Source: a virus
UHGV virus genome: UHGV-1370141
Length of the DNA stretch: 64,000 bases
Strand: one strand, 5' to 3'
Part shown: positions 2,011 through 24,590 of the stretch, piece after piece
Layout of the letters: each line of letters starts with the position of its first letter
How positions within the stretch are numbered: the stretch's first letter is position 1
The notes under the pieces: generated by a model
Told to the model about the DNA's origin: nothing
Databases searched by the model: none
What the model saw: the letters and a program-made list of their open reading frames with translations, nothing else
Made by a program: the position numbers and the translations under genes

Positions 2011-2949
2011 ATGGAGTCACCTGCAATGGCGACCAATGCGGAACCAAAATTATCAGATCAGTTATTTGACAATCCAACAATATTAGCCGTTATTACTACA
2101 TCCAAATGTAATCTGGACTGTAGTTTCTGCGGCGGAGCCTATTACATGAATCGTGAAGATTCTTCTCGAGAGTTTCAACGTGACCGAATTATGGAGGCGT
2201 TAGAAGCTAACCCAACAATCACCGAGATTCAATGGACGGGTGGTGAGCCTTTGTTAGCCACTCGTAAAATTGAGGCGTTTGTTGACGAGTTAAAAGTAAT
2301 TCGTCCAGAGCTCAAACATCAGTTATATACCAACGGTTTAAAGATGCGTAAAACGCATCTCCCGTTGTTAAAACAATTTGATAATGTGTATGTTAGCATC
2401 GACGGGTTTGAGTTGTCTGAACGCCCTTTTAAGCGTTTTATTAACGATGGTTGCTACGAAGCTTTAGAAGTAATGCATGAGCTTGAAAATGTTCATACAT
2501 GGGCCGTTTTAACTCGAGAACAGTTGGGTAACAAACGGTGGCATGAAGACATTATTGAGCTTCATAATGCGATCTATCACTACGGTTATCGTACCATGAC
2601 GTTGCTGTTAGACGCGAATATGCCAAAACCGTTATCTCCCGATCACGTTATGAACTTTATTTACGGGTATTTTAGAATTCAGGAAAATATAGAAAGACTG
2701 AATGTTTCCAACTCGAAAAGGTGTGACTATGTCGTAAGCAAAGTTTTTGATGGTGGGTGTAACGTATGCAGCAATAGTTTATGGTTAAGAGCAGATGGAA
2801 CCGAATATCAGTTGCAAAATGCCCCGAGATTATTAGAATCGGGATGTAACCAATTAGCTTGTTCCATCGGGTTAGAAGCCTACGAGTATATTCGACGAGT
2901 GGTTATGGCCAACCGTAATAGTGGAGTATTAAATGAACCAAGAAAATAA
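2011..2949 (+). CDS. radical SAM enzyme (312 aa) with C-terminal auxiliary Cys cluster
   Basis: CxxxCxxC motif (TTSKCNLDCSFCGG) near N-terminus; C-terminal cysteines CDYVVSKVFDGGCNVCS...GCNQLAC. Confidence 0.8.
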   Translation: MESPAMATNAEPKLSDQLFDNPTILAVITTSKCNLDCSFCGGAYYMNREDSSREFQRDRIMEALEANPTITEIQWTGGEPLLATRKIEAFVDELKVIRPELKHQLYTNGLKMRKTHLPLLKQFDNVYVSIDGFELSERPFKRFINDGCYEALEVMHELENVHTWAVLTREQLGNKRWHEDIIELHNAIYHYGYRTMTLLLDANMPKPLSPDHVMNFIYGYFRIQENIERLNVSNSKRCDYVVSKVFDGGCNVCSNSLWLRADGTEYQLQNAPRLLESGCNQLACSIGLEAYEYIRRVVMANRNSGVLNEPRK

Positions 2950-4255
2950 TTACCCGAAACAGTTGACTTACCAGATTGTTACAAACTTGTCGTGTAATTT
3001 GGACTGTGAGTATTGTTACGAGCGTAAATATCCCCGCAATAACAAAGCAGCAGATATTGTAGATTTTCTTCATGCCTGTTTCGAGCGTGATAAAGATTTA
3101 CCAAACGTAGAAGTCGTCATTGACATTATCGGCGGCGAGCCGTTTATGCAGCCTAAGCTTCTAATGGCCGCTTTCGAAACAGCCGAGCAGTTGTGTGAAG
3201 AACATAAACGCCCGTTTATGTTTAGTATCTCTACTAATGGGACATTATTAGATAGGCCGTTGAACAGGGAAATTATTGAACGTTGGAAGGACAGACTTTC
3301 TATCGGGGTGTCTATTGATGGGTTACCTGAGTCGCACGATAAGTACCGTATTTTTACAACGAGTCGCGAAGGTTCTTACGAGGCCGCTGTACGTGGTTAC
3401 AATTATCTAAAAGAAGTAGGTATCGCGGAGCTTGGGGTTAAAGCGACATTTACTTTGGAAACGCTCCCACATTATGCGGCGGGTATGAAATCCCTAATCG
3501 ATTTGGCTGGAGGTGGAACCATTTCTGGTAACGTAACCTTCGAAGACATTATGCCACGGAGTATGGCTACGTCGATAGCGCTACAAATGATGGATGTAGT
3601 CGATTATTGGGTTGAAAAGGGTTTACACACCAACCCACGTAATACCCTATCACATATCATCCCGGAAGGGTTAGATTTCGACACTATCTGGGAACCGAAC
3701 TGGCGGGATCAGCTACTTTACAACGATACTGTACGTTTAAACCCGGAACGCTTGCGTCCGTTCTGCGGGACATTAACTCACATGACTTGTTTAGGGTTTG
3801 ACAGGAAGATTTTCGGTTGTAACCGTTTCATGTCGACTGTAACGTCACGTTCTGCGGTATTTGAGTTAGTCGGTCGTGAGTTTGTTAGCTTAGACGGTGG
3901 GAAACTGCTGGAAGAGATTCAGACGCAATACACCAACTATCCTGAGACGTGCTTAGGTTGTCCGATGAAACACGCTTGTGGTAGCTGTGCAGCAGCTTCC
4001 TACGAGAATGGGGAAGGGACGTTAGAAGACCGTAAAGCGTATCACGCTGAACGTCGTCAATGTGGTTGGACAACTGCAAAATTAATGGTCGCGGAATACT
4101 GGAAACAGAAGATGGGTACAACATCTGTGAAGGATTTCCACGATAATAGCATGTGTTACTGCCCTCGCTGTGTACGTGAACGTGCCCAAAAAGAAAAACA
4201 ATTGAGAGAAGCCAAAGATGAAGCCAATTCTGATCCACAATATTACGAAGCGTAA
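2933..4255 (+). CDS. radical SAM / SPASM-domain enzyme (440 aa), anSME-like maturase
   Basis: CNLDCEYC radical SAM motif; GGEP motif; C-terminal CLGCPMKHACGSC SPASM-type cluster; overlaps previous gene by 17 nt. Confidence 0.85.
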   Translation: MNQENNYPKQLTYQIVTNLSCNLDCEYCYERKYPRNNKAADIVDFLHACFERDKDLPNVEVVIDIIGGEPFMQPKLLMAAFETAEQLCEEHKRPFMFSISTNGTLLDRPLNREIIERWKDRLSIGVSIDGLPESHDKYRIFTTSREGSYEAAVRGYNYLKEVGIAELGVKATFTLETLPHYAAGMKSLIDLAGGGTISGNVTFEDIMPRSMATSIALQMMDVVDYWVEKGLHTNPRNTLSHIIPEGLDFDTIWEPNWRDQLLYNDTVRLNPERLRPFCGTLTHMTCLGFDRKIFGCNRFMSTVTSRSAVFELVGREFVSLDGGKLLEEIQTQYTNYPETCLGCPMKHACGSCAAASYENGEGTLEDRKAYHAERRQCGWTTAKLMVAEYWKQKMGTTSVKDFHDNSMCYCPRCVRERAQKEKQLREAKDEANSDPQYYEA

Positions 4256-17597: not shown

Positions 17598-17603
17598 AAA
17601 AAA

Positions 17604-17630
17604 GGTAGTAGGGGCTAAGCCCCTACTACC
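17604..17630 (-). terminator. stem-loop terminator
   Basis: Inverted repeat ggtagtagggg / cccctactacc with ctaa loop, downstream of gene 17637..18257. Confidence 0.6.
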
Positions 17631-17636
17631 TAAAAT

Positions 17637-18257
17637 TTATTTCATTCCGTTCTGAGAAAGTGTTGTCCCTGCAAGATGCTTAATAACGATCTTGACAGGC
17701 AAATTACTATTCTCGTACTGTACTTCGGTTTCAGACAAATCGGTGATATCGACAACTTTAGAAGGTACTTTCGCTAAGACAACCCGAATGGTGTGGGTTA
17801 TCGTACTGGCTGTGGTCTTTGTATTACTAATGTAGAAGTACGCATCAATAATACCGCCGTCTTCTGCCAGATAAACCAATTTATTTTCCAACAGACACTG
17901 GGTATAAATTGACACTCCAGATAATTGCGAAATCCCCAGTCTATTATTAACGTCAACTGTTGTTTTGCAGATTACCGCACCACCTGTCAACGTTTTTTCT
18001 ACCACCATATTTCCCGATAAGGTTTTTGCATCCATTTTTGGTACAATCGGATGAGTGCCGTCAACAAACAACCCATCGCTGTTAGACTTAAGGATGTTAT
18101 TCGCCGACGGACTCACTGTAACCTCGCCACCCCCTAATTTCTCAATCGGGAGTTGGTATTCAGTTTGTTCCTTAGACGCTAAGACTACTACACCCGTGAT
18201 GTCTTCTGAAAGTGTCTCCAGTTCATGAATGCGCACCTTTCCTACCAGTTCAGCCAT
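17637..18257 (-). CDS. short tail fibre protein with shared N-terminal anchor domain (206 aa)
   Basis: N-terminus MAELVGKVRIHELETL... homologous to N-termini of 20032..24513 and 27597..28058. Confidence 0.55.
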   Translation of the reverse strand: MAELVGKVRIHELETLSEDITGVVVLASKEQTEYQLPIEKLGGGEVTVSPSANNILKSNSDGLFVDGTHPIVPKMDAKTLSGNMVVEKTLTGGAVICKTTVDVNNRLGISQLSGVSIYTQCLLENKLVYLAEDGGIIDAYFYISNTKTTASTITHTIRVVLAKVPSKVVDITDLSETEVQYENSNLPVKIVIKHLAGTTLSQNGMK

Positions 18258-18772
18258 TAGTGGCCTCCGAATGTTAAGACACGGTTATCTGCGGTAACGA
18301 TTAAATCGTTGTCTTTTACTACAGCGGCTTCTTCATCGTTACCGAAAACCAGAACGGAGAATTGGCCTTTATAACCTAACGAGTTGGGTGAAACCTGTAA
18401 CGTTACAGCGTCTTTCCCTACGGTAAATGATTCGTCGGTAAGATCGTCGGGTTGTAAATTACAACCACAAGCCGCGTTAATTCCGTCGATTAGATCGTGT
18501 GCGGTAAAGCCATTACCGGAAACCTTTACCAGAATAGGTTGCTGGTTTAACCACCGCTCTGCGGTTAAACGGTTGTAATAAATCTGTAACGTTCTGTTGT
18601 CCGGACGTTTTATCTTTACAACAGCAGTGGTGTCACGATCCATTTCGTTACTGGTCTTTACGTCGCTGACTTCAACCTCGTTCTCTTGCAGGTCGAGCTG
18701 GAGGTCATGGTTAACCAGTGAAATAACCATGTTAAGTGAAGTTAACGACAAATCTGGCGTGAATTGTTCCAC
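18257..18772 (-). CDS. hypothetical fibre-associated protein (171 aa), paralog of 28024..28587
   Basis: N-terminus MEQFTPDLSLTSLNMVISLVNHD... matches 28024..28587; start codon is GTG at 18772 with AGGAGGT RBS. Confidence 0.55.
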   Translation of the reverse strand: MEQFTPDLSLTSLNMVISLVNHDLQLDLQENEVEVSDVKTSNEMDRDTTAVVKIKRPDNRTLQIYYNRLTAERWLNQQPILVKVSGNGFTAHDLIDGINAACGCNLQPDDLTDESFTVGKDAVTLQVSPNSLGYKGQFSVLVFGNDEEAAVVKDNDLIVTADNRVLTFGGH

Positions 18773-18870
18773 GTATGGTTACCTCCTATGATTGGGGAGA
18801 CGTAAAATGTTGGCTAAAAACATTTCACCCCCCCCCGATTACGTTTTCAAGCACACTCGCTTGAAAATTA

Positions 18871-19377
18871 TTAACTGATTTTGAAATCTCTTAACGTACC
18901 AGTTGATCTCATCACGTTTTGAAAAGCAGTGCTGATGTTATTAGTCCAGTAGTAATGCTGTCCGTTAATAACCTGCTGATAGGTCAGTGCGCAAGTGTTA
19001 CCGCCTAGATTTACAGTGATGTTAGAGGCCCTGCCGCCTTGTAAGTAAACCGCTAAACTAGGCCTTGCGTTGCCAACTACCGTCGTTAACTGTAATTCGA
19101 TACCTACTAAAGTTCCCACCCCGCAGTTACCCGCGTTTTGAATGGTCCCCTGATTTTTCTGGTTTAACGGCCAATTTGGTCCTACTGCGCCCCATTTCTT
19201 ACCTAAAGAATCTCTATATGCGGCAGTTGCAATTTTACAGCCCATAGATCTTCCCACCATTTGACTCATCATAAAAGGTCTACTCAATCCTAATTTACTA
19301 CCCGCAGCGCTCATCCACTGTTCGCCCGTTTCATTCCTAGCTGAAGATCCGACCCATCCTGACGCTACCCCCCCCAT
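18871..19377 (-). CDS. glycine-rich adhesin-like protein (168 aa)
   Basis: N-terminus GWVGSSARNETGEQWMS... paralogous to 19394..20032; located just downstream of long tail fibre gene. Confidence 0.5.
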   Translation of the reverse strand: MGGVASGWVGSSARNETGEQWMSAAGSKLGLSRPFMMSQMVGRSMGCKIATAAYRDSLGKKWGAVGPNWPLNQKNQGTIQNAGNCGVGTLVGIELQLTTVVGNARPSLAVYLQGGRASNITVNLGGNTCALTYQQVINGQHYYWTNNISTAFQNVMRSTGTLRDFKIS

Positions 19378-19393
19378 CTACCCTCCTTTTTAA

Positions 19394-20032
19394 TTAAACA
19401 CGTGAACCGTATATTGCACCTACTGCGTCCCATCTTGGCGCATTACCAGTAACAGCTTTACCAGCTGCTCCGCCGTTATATTCTGTACCGTTACCATGAG
19501 TATTACATCTTCCTCCAGCAGCACCGACATTACCACCCGAACCGCCTGTATATGCACTAAGAGACCCCTCACCAACAGATCCTCTACCAGGAGCGGAAAT
19601 AGTACCAGCAGCTGCACCGGAACTCATATGAGAGGAAGACCCACCAGCACCGCCTGGCGAGTTAGAACCACCGTTGCCTCCTCTGCCGTATACTGTAACC
19701 CCAGGATTGATGATGAGTGTAATATACGAATTTGGAAGATTGCTAGGGAATTCTAAACAAGGAACCCCGCTACTATAAGACACTAAATCCCCTGTAATGG
19801 TCACAACGACAGCAGTAGAGCCTAAAGAACGTAAATAGTTAATAAGAGTATCCTTATTATAGCTATGGTTAGCACCAATAGAATAATGGACCTCTTTTGA
19901 TTTTCCCGCCAATTGCGACATCCAGCCTGGAACCGGCACACCAAGTGTGCGCATCGCGCCAGACATCCATTCGTTACCAGCTTCAGCTTTTGCTGAAGAA
20001 CCAATCCAACCACCTACGCCGACAACTGCCAC
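19394..20032 (-). CDS. glycine-rich adhesin-like protein (212 aa)
   Basis: Gly-rich segments (GGNGGSNSPGGAGGSS...) separating other sequence, reminiscent of T2-type gp38 adhesins. Confidence 0.5.
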   Translation of the reverse strand: MAVVGVGGWIGSSAKAEAGNEWMSGAMRTLGVPVPGWMSQLAGKSKEVHYSIGANHSYNKDTLINYLRSLGSTAVVVTITGDLVSYSSGVPCLEFPSNLPNSYITLIINPGVTVYGRGGNGGSNSPGGAGGSSSHMSSGAAAGTISAPGRGSVGEGSLSAYTGGSGGNVGAAGGRCNTHGNGTEYNGGAAGKAVTGNAPRWDAVGAIYGSRV

Positions 20033-23000
20033 TAGGATCTCCCTTTGATTTCGTTAACCTCTTGACGCAACGCTTTCATACCCTCTACTAACAGCGCAAT
20101 AACGCCATTGTAGTTTAGACGTAAACGTTTTTCGCCTGAAATGGCATCATCATCCTCAGACACAAGTTCAGGTAACGCTTCTAATGCGTCTTGAGCAATT
20201 AGACCTACAGAAGTTTGCCAACCGTCATCCGGATGCTGAATTTCGTACAAATAACCAGTTAGTAACTCTAACCGATCCAAAGCCTTATCCAGCTTCACCA
20301 GATTACGTTTGTTACGACGGTCAGAACGAATCTGTACGTCGTTAAACGAACCGTTACCGCTGCCAGTAACGTTATGACCAAAGGTTACTTGGCCATTAGC
20401 GTTATTAAAATACAACGGACGTAGTCCGTTCCAGGAACCCGTTGCAGCTTGTCCGGCGTCGGTTACTAAGAAATAGGTATTGGCACCATCGTTACGTAAC
20501 ATAAAGCCGTAGTTGCCGTAAGCGATTCGAAAATCAGGGTACTTAGTGACCAATTTACCGTTAACGGTTAAATCGCCACCTATAGTACCGCCCCCTGACG
20601 GTAACGCACCGATGTCACCAGCGTTAGGTTTGTTGTGTGTGCTGTAAATCAGATAGACGGTACCGTCTGTTAGTCCTGCGGGTTTATTAGCCGTATAGCT
20701 TGGCGATGTGTGAATCGTTACGTTGGCATTACTAGTGTAGTCCCACTGAATATTAACACCGGTGGCGTAATTACCTATTTCAACATAAATATCGTAAGTG
20801 TCACCAGATGTATTCACCCATGCAAAATTAGTGAAGCCGACTGAGGTCAGTCGCCATAACGCACCAGTAATACCTTTTGGATTCCCATTTCCTGCACGCA
20901 GAACCAGCTCAGAGATACCTGCTTGATGCGGGGAACCAACGTTAAACCCTGCACCACCAATCAGGCTTATGTAAACCACGGAACTGGCTTGTGGCATCGT
21001 TACAGTTGCTAGTTTGAACCATCCGGCACCACCATTAAAAGACACAGTTGTTGTGTTCGCGGCACCAACATTTCGTAAGAATTTTCTCTTATCTGGAATA
21101 TCGGCACCGTTCTGTTTCTTCTGCAATGACCCACCGGCCAATTCTACAGTTTGGCCAAGATTTAAACTTTCAGCCGTTATTTCGATGTTTTTAGTGCCGT
21201 CAAACGCAATACCGTTGATGGTTCTTGCAGTTTGCAACTTTGTTGCAGTGGCCGCGTTTCCGGTGGTCGACTGATTACCCGTTTGGTTTACTCCAGGAAG
21301 ATTAACGTCTTTCGTCCCATCGAAAACCACACCACCGATCCTACGTCCTGTTTGTAACTTGGTAGCGGTTGCTGCATTACCTGTCGTATTCTGGTTGCCT
21401 TGCTGGTTAACCCCCGGTAAATTGATATCCCCAGTACCGTCAAAGGTAACGCCGCCGATTCTGCGAGCGGTTTTCAGTTTCGTCGCGGTAGCGGCGTTGC
21501 CGGTAGTATCTTGATTACCTGTGGTATTTACGCCAGGAATACTGTCACGGGCAGTATAAACTTGTGCCCAATCTGACCACGGCGCATCTGCCGTATCACG
21601 TCGACTACGAATATAAACTGGCGCGTGCGCACCACTCGTGCCCGACCAACCAATTAACAACTCGCCTTCGCCTAGCGCAGCAGAACCACCCAAATGCAGT
21701 AAGTTACCATAAGCGGTCGGATAACCGTTATTGTAAACTTCGTACATCTGAATACCAGGCGTACCTTTGTTTGAACCAGTCAGTGCAGTAACACGTCCAC
21801 GTCCTACCAACGTGTTGATATTGATGTCTCTAGACCCATCAAATTTCACACCGTTGATGTTTCGAGCCGTTTGTAATTTGGTTGCGGTTCCCGCGTTCCC
21901 AGAGGTGTTTTGATTACCTTGTTGGTTAACACCTGGGAGGTTAACGTCGCCGCTACCGTCGAAGGCGACCCCACCAATTCTACGTGCCGTCTTTAATTTA
22001 GTGGCGGTTGAAGCATTGCCTGTTAACTCACCTGCTAACCCTTTTGCAAAGGTCTGTTTTTCTGCCCAGGTGTGCGCTGCGTTCAATACAGGCATCTGGC
22101 GTGGCGTAATTGTTCGACTACCTTTCTCACCAGCGATACGAACAGCAAAGAAGCGATAGTTGGCAGTAGACACCGTACTACGCCAAACCAACATGCTCCG
22201 ACCGGTGCCGGTGTCATCAGACGGCCCTACAAGGATGTTAACTAAGTTACCGTCAATCACACCCCAATCCATTCCCGCAGGAATATTTTTCATGGTGTTC
22301 AACGGTGACGTTAACATCTGACCGGGAACGAAGTCGTAGGTTTGCCAGTCTAACGGGTCAACCTTAGCAGCTACACCACCAATGCCTAAAACTAACGGAA
22401 GTGAATACGAGGTGAAAACCTCTCGCCACCCACTCCAAATGTTACCCGTACGGATACGTTGGAATTTACGACCTTTAGTTTCTCTACCCGTGCCGTATGT
22501 GGTATAATTCTGTTCGACCCCTGTACCGTCTAAGCGTAAGGTAACTTCACAAACGCCTACCACGGTTTCGCTAGAAGAACCGATAAGTGGACCGTTAGTT
22601 GCCTCACCAGTGACACTGAAACGACCCGGTTTAACGAGATCGTTAAAATTGGCTTTAAAGAAAGCACCGTCAGTCTGATAACCAACCTGAATCCAATCTT
22701 CCCATTGTGGGTTTGATGAATCCCACGTTGCAGTCAAACCACGGACATACATTGTGCCACGACGCGTAGTGTATCGCTGCAACCGTCCGAAAAGACCACC
22801 TTCCATTACTTCTAGTACGCCTTGCGCGTTACCGCCTTCTTCAGGGTAATGCCGGTCGAACACCGCTAACGAACTGGACGAGTTCCGCCAGTTACCCATA
22901 TGCTCAGCGCCACCCAGAGAGTTCAAGTCTATAGAGGTAGACAGTGGGCGAACACCAGTGGTTACCATTCTCCACGGTGACCAGGGTCCATTAGTTCCGT

Positions 23001-24513
23001 TCCACACACCTGACAACATACGGTTGTACACGTTACCATTACGACAGGTAAAACGTTGCGCGCCACTGTAGTTGCCCGCTTTATACACTTCCAGATAACC
23101 GACTGCACCGTCTTCTGGGAAGTGTTTTGCCATCGACGCATTGGTTGATGTCGACTTAGACCACGTTCCTGTGTAATTAGCATCTGGAGCAAATGTGTTA
23201 ATATCAGCATCTACAGGCATTTCGCCACGGAAACGCAGGTAGGTATCAGGAGATAGGCCGATGTTGCGAGCAAAAGTTTCTTTATCTGGGATATCAGCGC
23301 CGTTAGAGTTTTTCTGTAACGCACCATTCGCTTTATCGACGGTAGTTTTCAAACCCAGGAAGTTAATGATATCCGCCGTCGACCCTTTCGCTAACAAATC
23401 GCGCGCAGTCGAGGTGAAATCCGCTAATCCCACCCGATTACTACCGGTAAAGTAAGGGAGTTTGTTTGCAGCGGTGGTGACTGCGGCAATCGCTGTCAGT
23501 AACGGACTTAACGGCTGTTTACCCGCGAGTTGGTTCGTTATCGTTGTCGCAAAGTTAGGATCGTTTCCTAACGCGGCTGCAATTTCTGATAACGTATCTA
23601 ACGTCTCGGGTGAAGAGTCCACTAATTCAGCAATCGCTTGCCGTACCCATGCCGTCGTTGAGACTGTCGTGTCGTTAGAATCCGCAGCAGGAGTCGGAGC
23701 TTTTACTACGCCAGTAAACGTCGGCGAGTGACGGTTTGCTTTTAACTGCAAATCATCATTTAACTGCTTAACCGTTGACGGTGTAGCCGCTTCCGTAACC
23801 GAGTCACTGGTTAAGGTATTATTAAGTTTAACGATACCTTTACTGGACGTTGTTGCATCAACGTTACCTTTTGCAGCGATTTCCTCTGCACGCTTAGCGG
23901 CTGCCTCAGAACGCGTTGCCGCATTCTCTGCGGTTTCTTTGTCTGAGGTAACTTGCGTTGCTGTAGCCTCTACAGAGGCTTTTGACGACTCTACTGACGC
24001 GACAGCTTCGTTAACTGCCGTAAGCGACTGTTCTACTTGACCGGCTTGTGTGGCAACAGTTTCTGCTTTCTTCGTAACGGTAGTCACCGCTTGTGTGACG
24101 TTGGCCTCGCTTGCCGCTACCGCTTGTGCTTTCTCATTAACGGACACAACCTGGGTATCTACCGCCGTTTTCGCGGCTAACACTTCAGTGTGTTTTGTAC
24201 CGACCTCAGTTGCTTTTTCGGTTACAGTTTGCGCTTGTTGAGCAACCGTAGCCGCAACGGTGTCAGTTTGTTGTTTTGCTGTTTCTGCTAAATTCTTTGC
24301 TTGTGTAGCCTGAGTTGCAGCTTCTTGTGATTGTGTTGCTGCTGCTTGTGCATCAGACACCGCATTACGCACGGTGTCAATATCTGCAACGATCTCACGG
24401 ACTGGTAACTTATAATCTTTCTCATCTTTGGAGAAAAGTAAAACACCTTCACCGATATCCCCGGTGTATGGACGTAAGTCGTGTAAACGAATTTTCTTTA
24501 CCGCTTTAGCCAT
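20032..24513 (-). CDS. long tail fibre protein (1493 aa) with C-terminal S74-type intramolecular chaperone domain
   Basis: N-terminal anchor domain; multiple repeats ...GNAATATKLQTARRIGGVxFDGTxDxNLPGVNQ...; C-terminus ...SDRRNKRNLVKLDKALDRLELLTGYLYEIQ... typical of self-cleaving chaperone. Confidence 0.85.
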   Translation of the reverse strand: MAKAVKKIRLHDLRPYTGDIGEGVLLFSKDEKDYKLPVREIVADIDTVRNAVSDAQAAATQSQEAATQATQAKNLAETAKQQTDTVAATVAQQAQTVTEKATEVGTKHTEVLAAKTAVDTQVVSVNEKAQAVAASEANVTQAVTTVTKKAETVATQAGQVEQSLTAVNEAVASVESSKASVEATATQVTSDKETAENAATRSEAAAKRAEEIAAKGNVDATTSSKGIVKLNNTLTSDSVTEAATPSTVKQLNDDLQLKANRHSPTFTGVVKAPTPAADSNDTTVSTTAWVRQAIAELVDSSPETLDTLSEIAAALGNDPNFATTITNQLAGKQPLSPLLTAIAAVTTAANKLPYFTGSNRVGLADFTSTARDLLAKGSTADIINFLGLKTTVDKANGALQKNSNGADIPDKETFARNIGLSPDTYLRFRGEMPVDADINTFAPDANYTGTWSKSTSTNASMAKHFPEDGAVGYLEVYKAGNYSGAQRFTCRNGNVYNRMLSGVWNGTNGPWSPWRMVTTGVRPLSTSIDLNSLGGAEHMGNWRNSSSSLAVFDRHYPEEGGNAQGVLEVMEGGLFGRLQRYTTRRGTMYVRGLTATWDSSNPQWEDWIQVGYQTDGAFFKANFNDLVKPGRFSVTGEATNGPLIGSSSETVVGVCEVTLRLDGTGVEQNYTTYGTGRETKGRKFQRIRTGNIWSGWREVFTSYSLPLVLGIGGVAAKVDPLDWQTYDFVPGQMLTSPLNTMKNIPAGMDWGVIDGNLVNILVGPSDDTGTGRSMLVWRSTVSTANYRFFAVRIAGEKGSRTITPRQMPVLNAAHTWAEKQTFAKGLAGELTGNASTATKLKTARRIGGVAFDGSGDVNLPGVNQQGNQNTSGNAGTATKLQTARNINGVKFDGSRDININTLVGRGRVTALTGSNKGTPGIQMYEVYNNGYPTAYGNLLHLGGSAALGEGELLIGWSGTSGAHAPVYIRSRRDTADAPWSDWAQVYTARDSIPGVNTTGNQDTTGNAATATKLKTARRIGGVTFDGTGDINLPGVNQQGNQNTTGNAATATKLQTGRRIGGVVFDGTKDVNLPGVNQTGNQSTTGNAATATKLQTARTINGIAFDGTKNIEITAESLNLGQTVELAGGSLQKKQNGADIPDKRKFLRNVGAANTTTVSFNGGAGWFKLATVTMPQASSVVYISLIGGAGFNVGSPHQAGISELVLRAGNGNPKGITGALWRLTSVGFTNFAWVNTSGDTYDIYVEIGNYATGVNIQWDYTSNANVTIHTSPSYTANKPAGLTDGTVYLIYSTHNKPNAGDIGALPSGGGTIGGDLTVNGKLVTKYPDFRIAYGNYGFMLRNDGANTYFLVTDAGQAATGSWNGLRPLYFNNANGQVTFGHNVTGSGNGSFNDVQIRSDRRNKRNLVKLDKALDRLELLTGYLYEIQHPDDGWQTSVGLIAQDALEALPELVSEDDDAISGEKRLRLNYNGVIALLVEGMKALRQEVNEIKGRS

Positions 24514-24547
24514 GATATTTAATTCTCTATCGGGAGCTAAAAGATCT

Positions 24548-24569
24548 GGGGGAGGTAAGCACCTCCCCC
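24548..24569. terminator. stem-loop between spike and fibre genes
   Basis: Perfect inverted repeat gggggaggt / acctccccc with aagc loop. Confidence 0.55.
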
Positions 24570-24590
24570 AACATTTTTATAAGCGGGTTA

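Follow-up and report, generated by a model that had tools for sequence, protein, structure and literature searches.

Two small adhesin-like genes lie in tandem behind the long tail fibre gene of the phage genome UHGV-1370141, and the question arises how one fibre comes to be followed by two such proteins. In a first-pass annotation of the 64,000-nt stretch analysed here (the window), the pair had been described as glycine-rich paralogs that recall T2-type gp38 adhesins and would give the phage alternative receptor specificities. Both open reading frames were confirmed at 18871..19377 (ORF-B) and 19394..20032 (ORF-A), on the minus strand and, as the annotation had claimed, directly 3′ of the long fibre gene, which encodes 1493 aa with a chaperone domain; the downstream order is fibre, ORF-A, ORF-B (Table 1). 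The answer towards which we lean is that ORF-A and ORF-B are alternative monomeric caps for one fibre, ORF-B being the resident, essential adhesin and ORF-A an acquired accessory whose function in the window phage is uncertain.

The window phage is assigned by its major capsid protein to the phiKZ-like jumbo phages of enterobacteria. This protein is of the PhiKZ type (E 5.7e-207) and shares ~79% identity with those of Erwinia phage phiEaH2 and of SPN3US-like phages; the N-terminal ~50 aa of the fibre are similar to SPN3US-type tail-fibre N-termini. Among sequenced phages, megablast with 3-kb and 20-kb segments of the window found no close genome at the DNA level and returned only the 3′ 260 nt of the gp38 gene (ORF-A) and weak jumbo-phage matches. 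Relatives were defined by common downstream genes (DUF7941, a 206-aa gene, then most of the genes encoding 283, 147, 280, 171 and 93 aa). The fibre gene is followed by A and then B in nine contigs (the window, L005, L007, L008 and L041 to L045), and by an ORF-B orthologue with nothing between in four (L006, L038, L039 and L040). The locus thus varies among related phages, a point which the first-pass annotation had proposed to check: A is present or absent (9 vs 4 contigs), its alleles range from 176 to 263 aa, and B is swapped in L042. ORF-A starts with a GTG that overlaps the fibre stop (TAGTG), and ORF-B with an ATG 16 nt past the ORF-A stop. A consensus scan found no terminator-like sites at the fibre/ORF-A and ORF-A/ORF-B junctions (weak stems occur only inside the fibre gene and ORF-A), and both adhesin genes would be co-transcribed with the fibre gene, each with its own ribosome-binding site.

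Table 1. Features of the fibre and adhesin locus in the window, in downstream order.
Feature	Position	Strand	Evidence
Terminator-like hairpin upstream of the fibre gene; possible transcription-unit boundary	24546..24571	-	Consensus scan only
Long tail fibre, 1493 aa, gp37-like distal end	20032..24513	-	Pfam Phage_fiber_2, Gp34_trimer, Peptidase_S74; C-terminal part vs S16 gp37 fragment 6F45_A, E 4e-14
Fibre intramolecular chaperone domain, 97 aa, begins SDRRNKRN	20035..20325	-	Peptidase_S74, 3e-10; aligned to S16 gp37 SDRRIKKD segment
ORF-A: predicted T2/S16-type gp38 adhesin, internally deleted variant, 212 aa	19394..20032	-	PF05268, 5.3e-45; PF21721, 3.8e-14; phrog_2056, 4e-69; 6F45_D, 2.3e-30
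Gp38_N docking domain of ORF-A, aa 1-42	19907..20032	-	Pfam PF21721
ORF-A deletion junction PGGAGG/SSSH, 144 nt, in-frame	19640..19654	-	DNA and protein alignment vs full-length L043 and L005 alleles
16-nt spacer with AAGGAGG ribosome-binding site for ORF-B	19378..19393	-	Sequence inspection
ORF-B: Gp38_N and glycine-poor beta domain, phrog_1121 'tail fiber adhesin' family, 168 aa	18871..19377	-	PF21721, 9.6e-19; phrog_1121, 4.6e-44; AF2 pLDDT 86.9
Gp38_N docking domain of ORF-B, aa 3-41	19255..19371	-	Pfam PF21721
Spacer 3′ of ORF-B, two stable hairpins, the second with a G9 run as 5′ arm	18773..18870	-	RNA fold -34.9 kcal/mol, z -4.6
Terminator-like 13-bp hairpin 3′ of the 206-aa gene, where the fibre-A-B-DUF7941-206aa block may end	17603..17631	-	Consensus scan only

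ORF-A and ORF-B have an N-terminal segment in common and diverge after it, as had been noted: residues 8-45 of ORF-A align by BLASTP to residues 7-44 of ORF-B (20/38 identical, 26/38 similar, E 2e-10), and both proteins pass the Pfam profile Gp38_N (PF21721) with 52.9 and 67.6 bits, respectively, above its gathering score of 25 bits. BLASTP found no further significant similarity outside this segment, which ends after about residue 45. The description of the two as paralogs over the whole gene could not be upheld, because only the ~40 aa of Gp38_N are common to both; a tandem duplication of a whole gene was rejected because the C-terminal parts are without detectable similarity and codon usage is different (GC3 of 0.30 in ORF-A and 0.44 in ORF-B, with 0.42 in the fibre gene and 0.545 in the capsid gene). 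As judged from these alignments, ORF-A and ORF-B are two different receptor-binding modules on one common docking domain. Glycine-richness, counted from the docking domain onward, holds for the longer of the two (21% Gly) and not for the shorter (14%).

Profile comparison places ORF-A among the true T2/S16-type gp38 proteins: it passes Pfam GP38 (PF05268; 154.4 bits, E 5.3e-45), matches phrog_2056 'tail fiber protein; host specificity' (4e-69) and aligns with the solved gp38 of S16 (6F45_D, E 2.3e-30) and PP01 (9V85, E 1.2e-15). The structure prediction that had been suggested as a check gave an AF2 model (67 homologues) that resembles 6F45_D (TM 0.71, E 7e-15), confident over residues 1-120 only, with pLDDT 42-78 over the glycine-rich residues 121-212; a polyglycine-II sandwich fold is on this basis a tentative prediction for ORF-A. 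Like gp38 of S16, T2, T6, PP01 and RB49 (PF05268 and PF21721; PDB 6F45, 9V85), ORF-A has a docking domain, a middle domain and the C-terminal motif WxxVGxIYGxRV, and like S16/T2-type gp38 it follows a gp37-like fibre with a chaperone that, by family resemblance, would be self-cleaving. It differs from these proteins in being 48 residues shorter, in its occurrence in a phiKZ-like jumbo phage instead of the Straboviridae, and in having a second docking-domain protein next to it. The likeness to gp38 stands for ORF-A, with GP38 and Gp38_N, the S16 and PP01 structures and a gp37-like, chaperone-bearing fibre 5′ of it; for ORF-B it extends to the docking domain and ends there, since glycine-rich motifs are lacking and the predicted beta domain is that of phrog_1121.

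Gp38 is laid out as five glycine-rich motifs (GRM) between which four hypervariable segments (HVS) lie (PMC3157838). Compared with full-length alleles of the clade and with gp38 of JSE and T6, the 48 missing residues of ORF-A were lost through a clean deletion of 144 nt between direct repeats GGTGC(A/T)GGTGG, and the block that is gone comprises HVS1, GRM2, HVS2 and most of GRM3 in the T6 alignment (boundaries in ORF-A were assigned from the alignment in the present analysis). What is retained is GRM1, HVS3, GRM4, HVS4, GRM5 and the C-terminal motif, so that the full layout of five GRMs and four HVSs is not found; GNGTEYNGG, which corresponds to the RB49 host-range mutation positions E230 and Y231, is still present. 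In T6 gp38, single deletion of GRM2, GRM3, GRM4, HVS1, HVS2 or HVS3 resulted in no viable phage (PMC3157838). Because HVS1-GRM2-HVS2-GRM3 are lost, the binding competence of ORF-A is doubtful, although HVS3 and HVS4 are kept, and most of the adhesin work in the window phage, if not all of it, probably falls to ORF-B. The loss of four modules that are each essential in T6 also favours an explanation in which only ORF-B works and ORF-A is a decaying gp38 remnant, its frame open but the protein unable to bind a receptor or to dock. We consider this explanation, the strongest of the rivals, less likely than the preferred one: HVS3, HVS4 and the C-terminal motif of ORF-A are conserved and nearly identical to those of functional RB49-type gp38, and a still shorter, minimal gp38 of 167 aa is the sole adhesin in a T4-like contig (with the holin gene behind it).

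ORF-B represents a different adhesin family. It fails the Pfam GP38 core, passes Gp38_N (9.6e-19) and is without glycine-rich motifs, and its residues 3-162 match phrog_1121 on profile positions 2-174 of 181 (E 4.6e-44). The match to members of this family is full-length, with the same Gp38_N and glycine-poor beta domain, and identity is 56-60% to the Stx-phage 'tail fibre adhesin' (P13374 ORF66; phi191, annotated as 'receptor recognizing protein Gp38') and to a gene of the phage-plasmid CMS-2020a (CP054387), and 39-45% to 'gene 38' products of T4-like Edwardsiella, Klebsiella and Kosakonia phages. A word-indexed search gave 11 homologues only; an exhaustive profile search of 1.84 billion representatives gave 97 proteins (most with the docking domain only, about two dozen full length) and a 29-sequence alignment, from which AF2 predicted a compact domain, mostly of beta structure, behind two short helices at the N-terminus (pLDDT 86.9). 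No solved structure related to this beta domain was found, and the matches in BFVD were small 'Gp38 N-terminal domain-containing' proteins of T4-like Proteus phages. The ORF-B orthologues in L006 and L038 to L040 and the Stx-phage homologues lie directly 3′ of a chaperone-bearing fibre, which in the phrog_1121 relatives ends GNGSFNDVQIR↓SD(K/R)RNKRN (the arrow marks the cleavage site predicted from the S16/T2 family); the window differs in that the gp38 gene intervenes and that the phage is a jumbo myovirus.

Several database records of the ORF-B family carry the label 'distal long tail fiber assembly catalyst', and our literature search found no functional or receptor-binding study of phrog_1121 family members, so that ORF-B might be taken for a fibre assembly factor or adaptor instead of an adhesin. 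We regard this as very unlikely. The label derives from the gp38 of T4, a fibre chaperone that is released once assembly is done (PMC12892980); it has the gene name and position in common with the present proteins but is unrelated in sequence and role, and neither ORF resembles it. Furthermore, the fibre already has a chaperone domain of its own, ORF-B carries a T2-type docking domain, and no other tip protein gene adjoins the fibre in the B-only genomes. In L042, where the B allele is swapped, 47 of the 51 residues of the docking domain are identical and 57 of the 116 residues of the remainder; the variable, swapped part is the non-docking part, the pattern expected of a conserved plug with a variable receptor-binding module.

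In the preferred reading both adhesins would cap the tip of the same fibre. The fibre is the only chaperone-bearing ORF of the window; over its last 140 residues it can be aligned with the gp37 fragment of S16 with which gp38 was co-crystallised (SDRRIKKD in S16 vs SDRRNKRN here), and by analogy with the S16/T2 family the chaperone domain would be cut off before SDRRNKRN, leaving a predicted mature fibre that ends ...GSGNGSFNDVQIR (...GNGSFNDVQIR). The fibre end is GNGSFND(V/I)QIR↓SD(K/R)RNKRN in ~33 of ~33 B-only loci (many of them near-identical prophages) and VY(I/V)R↓SD or LNVS↓SD in ~27 of ~27 A-only loci with a detectable motif, counts that come from scans for close relatives and are phylogenetically non-independent. 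Fibre tips in the tandem contigs are of either type, that of the window being the QIR type (DVQIR↓SDRRNKRN). As the QIR tip is present in all B-only and in no A-only loci, ORF-A may be mismatched to the window fibre; incompatibility of gp37 and gp38 between related phages is known, and was cured by a swap of the N-terminal 113 residues (PMC12892980). Incompatibility of QIR-tip fibres with gp38 was rejected as a rule, since L008 and L043 combine a QIR tip with a full-length A, and what remains is a statistical association, which may reflect docking specificity or mere cassette linkage.

The correlation of tip type with adhesin type across genomes would also be expected if A and B capped two different fibres, one of them encoded outside the window, which covers 64 kb of a ~220-kb genome. 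We think this most improbable, as the window holds a single chaperone-bearing fibre and each near-complete relative contig likewise has one; the relative contigs of 151-225 kb appeared once each, in one of the two tip-type scans. Neither the window nor the contigs of relatives showed a second fibre that could serve as partner, in scans that detect close relatives only.

For the preferred reading, with two caps for one fibre, the origin of ORF-A is of interest. The fibre tip and chaperone are of the same type with or without A, and the difference is confined to the last ~12 codons of the fibre gene (...ALRQEVNEIKGRS with A, ...SLRRELKELKEK without), which indicates that the gp38 gene was inserted, or lost, at the extreme 3′ end of the fibre gene. 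Over its 3′ 260 nt ORF-A is 85-92% identical at the DNA level to RB49-like gp38 and 96% to CMS-2020a, which together with its low GC3 suggests that it came from an AT-rich T-even-like source; a T2/S16/RB49-type gp38 would then have entered by horizontal transfer, between the fibre gene and ORF-B. A B-type gene is the only Gp38_N gene after the fibre in L006, L038 to L040, the Stx prophages and one CMS-2020a isolate, and an A-type gene stands alone after the fibre in another CMS-2020a isolate; the occurrence of either type in these two isolates suggests that the types are exchangeable cassettes. Among the gp38 loci of IMG/VR, 38 of 41 have a single Gp38_N gene (243-277 aa), and a second one is found only in three loci of the jumbo clade.

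The two genes appear to differ in the selection acting on them. ORF-B is strongly constrained, with dN/dS of 0.05-0.18 (about 0.1) at dS 0.2-1.0 between orthologues within an allele family, equal in tandem and single contexts; dN/dS of ORF-A is 0.09-0.48. The A alleles of the tandem clade measure 263, ~256, 260, 260, 212 (three times), 199 and 176 aa. Internally deleted A alleles occur in 5 of 9 tandem contigs vs 0 of 36 single-adhesin loci of IMG/VR (Fisher p 1e-4, with only 2-3 independent events), an excess that points to relaxed constraint on A, and the comparison suggests that the gp38 copy is under weaker constraint than ORF-B. Such observations bear again on the idea of a decaying remnant. 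Independent, in-frame deleted A alleles (212, 199 and 176 aa) are recurrent and only in the jumbo clade, and all those with a known fibre stand beside the B-associated QIR tip; the ORF-A start is ATG in relatives and weakened to GTG in the window, and confidence of the ORF-A model is low at and beyond the deletion junction. However, the 212-aa allele is intact in three diverged genomes, with an estimated 9 synonymous and 9 nonsynonymous changes, fewer of the latter than neutrality predicts (binomial p 0.019, from small counts), and a cap that is blind but still able to dock would poison fibres and should be purged rapidly.

With ORF-A and ORF-B as alternative caps, the fibre trimer would fold assisted by the chaperone domain at its own C-terminus and, once this domain has been removed, a single adhesin monomer would dock on the tip via the ~40-residue Gp38_N, as we infer from the S16/T2 family. 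If both proteins dock, each fibre would carry either A or B, and the virion a mixture of two receptor specificities; the two alternative specificities put forward in the first-pass annotation are in this respect a reasonable hypothesis. A more speculative extension, which we offer only tentatively, is a plug-and-play tip, in which two structurally unrelated monomeric adhesins compete for one site per fibre, virions of mixed specificity arise from one infection as a bet-hedging strategy without a DNA switch, and the recurrent GRM-to-GRM deletions in gp38 either tune one arm or abolish it.

A tandem of this kind has a precedent in the Edwardsiella phage PEi20 (Kanagawavirus), in which two tandem 'gene 38' ORFs likewise follow gene 37, both with Gp38_N and with divergent C-terminal parts; the pair is annotated, but no discussion of it was found in the literature. 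Both copies of PEi20 are glycine-poor (ORF-275 is 43% identical to ORF-B and clearly B-type, ORF-274 24%), whereas two unrelated receptor-binding folds are paired in the window. In Mu and P1, S/U fibre tips are exchanged by DNA inversion. The T5-like phage DT57C is reported to have branched LtfA/LtfB fibres with several receptor-binding proteins (PMC4728585). The concept is the same in these phages, in that a single tail-fibre locus yields more than one specificity, achieved there by branching on a scaffold or by inversion and here by the proposed competition of two monomeric caps for one docking site. Literature searches found nothing on the A and B arrangement, that is, on two gp38 genes, on jumbo-phage gp38 or on Stx-phage gp38-like adhesins. 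Both protein families are already known, at least by annotation; what is new is that a phiKZ-like jumbo clade keeps two receptor-binding modules of unrelated type next to each other, each on the same kind of docking domain, and that its gp38 copy shows a series of natural deletions.

In T-even phages, no means of reprogramming host range is better understood than gp38-type caps. The present locus indicates that two or more unrelated receptor-binding modules are mounted on one docking domain, that two caps can coexist side by side, and that the module moved among T-even-like phages, SSU5-like phage-plasmids, Stx prophages and a phiKZ-like jumbo phage. If both caps dock, the locus would be a simple natural design for dual specificity and an engineering template for jumbo phages, the receptors of which are poorly known. 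The natural in-frame deletion series (260, 212, 199, 176 and 167 aa) would also lend itself to testing how much polyglycine sandwich adhesins need. As a minor observation, the G-run in the spacer after ORF-B ranges in length from G6 to G11 among relatives.

The last residues of the mature long tail fibre, compared across loci L001-L087 and the window, correlate with the type of adhesin encoded beside it. The fibre ends in ...FND(V/I)QIR at loci that have only the B-type adhesin (Gp38_N docking domain followed by a glycine-poor beta domain) and in ...VY(I/V)R or LNVS at loci that have only gp38, and both types of ending occur in the tandem genomes, in which fibre, gp38 and B-type gene follow one another. 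This correlation may represent a docking-specificity code, or it may be mere linkage of the genes within a cassette.

Two tandem contigs, L042 and L044, carry a 170-aa variant in place of the usual ORF-B (B-type) allele. In L042, the docking domain of the variant is retained (47/51 identical residues) and the rest has diverged (57/116), which indicates a cassette exchange at the domain boundary. In a T4-like contig (L046; gene order gp36, gp37, then holin t), the sole adhesin is a gp38 of only 167 aa, a natural minimal polyglycine adhesin, which is of interest relative to the single GRM/HVS deletions that abolish gp38 function in phage T6 (PMC3157838).

The spacer 3' of ORF-B is predicted to form two stable hairpins, and a poly-G run makes up the 5' arm of the second. 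The length of this run (G9 in the window) ranges from G6 to G11 across related contigs; it may act as a regulatory element of variable length, or be a sequencing artefact of the homopolymer.

The N-terminus of the window's long fibre resembles those of SPN3US tail fibres and matches the first ~41 residues of a 206-aa ORF (16/41 identical, E 1e-7), the remainder of which matches the C-terminal end of phrog_33169 (an 842-aa PHROG of unknown function). This ORF appears to encode an additional, very short fibre with a virion anchor common to the long fibre. A 489-aa DUF6645 gene, absent from the window, is inserted 3' of the 206-aa gene in L041. In L005, the C-terminal domain of the window's DUF7941 protein forms the end of a 644-aa protein, preceded there by a large additional N-terminal region, and relatives carry a further DUF7941 gene upstream of the fibre.

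A clue to the host comes from L040, an 83.7-kb contig of the same jumbo-phage clade found in the assembly GCA_044191855 of a Salmonella enterica serovar Chester isolate (its presence there hints at a carrier state or at contamination).

Features of the window and of the compared contigs
Feature	Contig	Position	Strand	Remark
Radical SAM / 4Fe-4S protein, 440 aa	window	2933-4255	+	encoded by phiKZ-like phage
206-aa ORF	window	17637-18257	-	N-terminus like long fibre's
DUF7941 'virion structural protein', 171 aa	window	18257-18772	-	
Spacer after ORF-B	window	18773-18870	-	fold -34.9 kcal/mol, z -4.6
Mature fibre end	window	20326-20391		
DUF7941-ending protein	L005	6217-8151		
DUF6645 gene	L041	8427-9896		
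ORF-B variant	L042	6656-7168		
ORF-B variant	L044	1767-2279		
Minimal gp38	L046	5001-5504		T4-like contig
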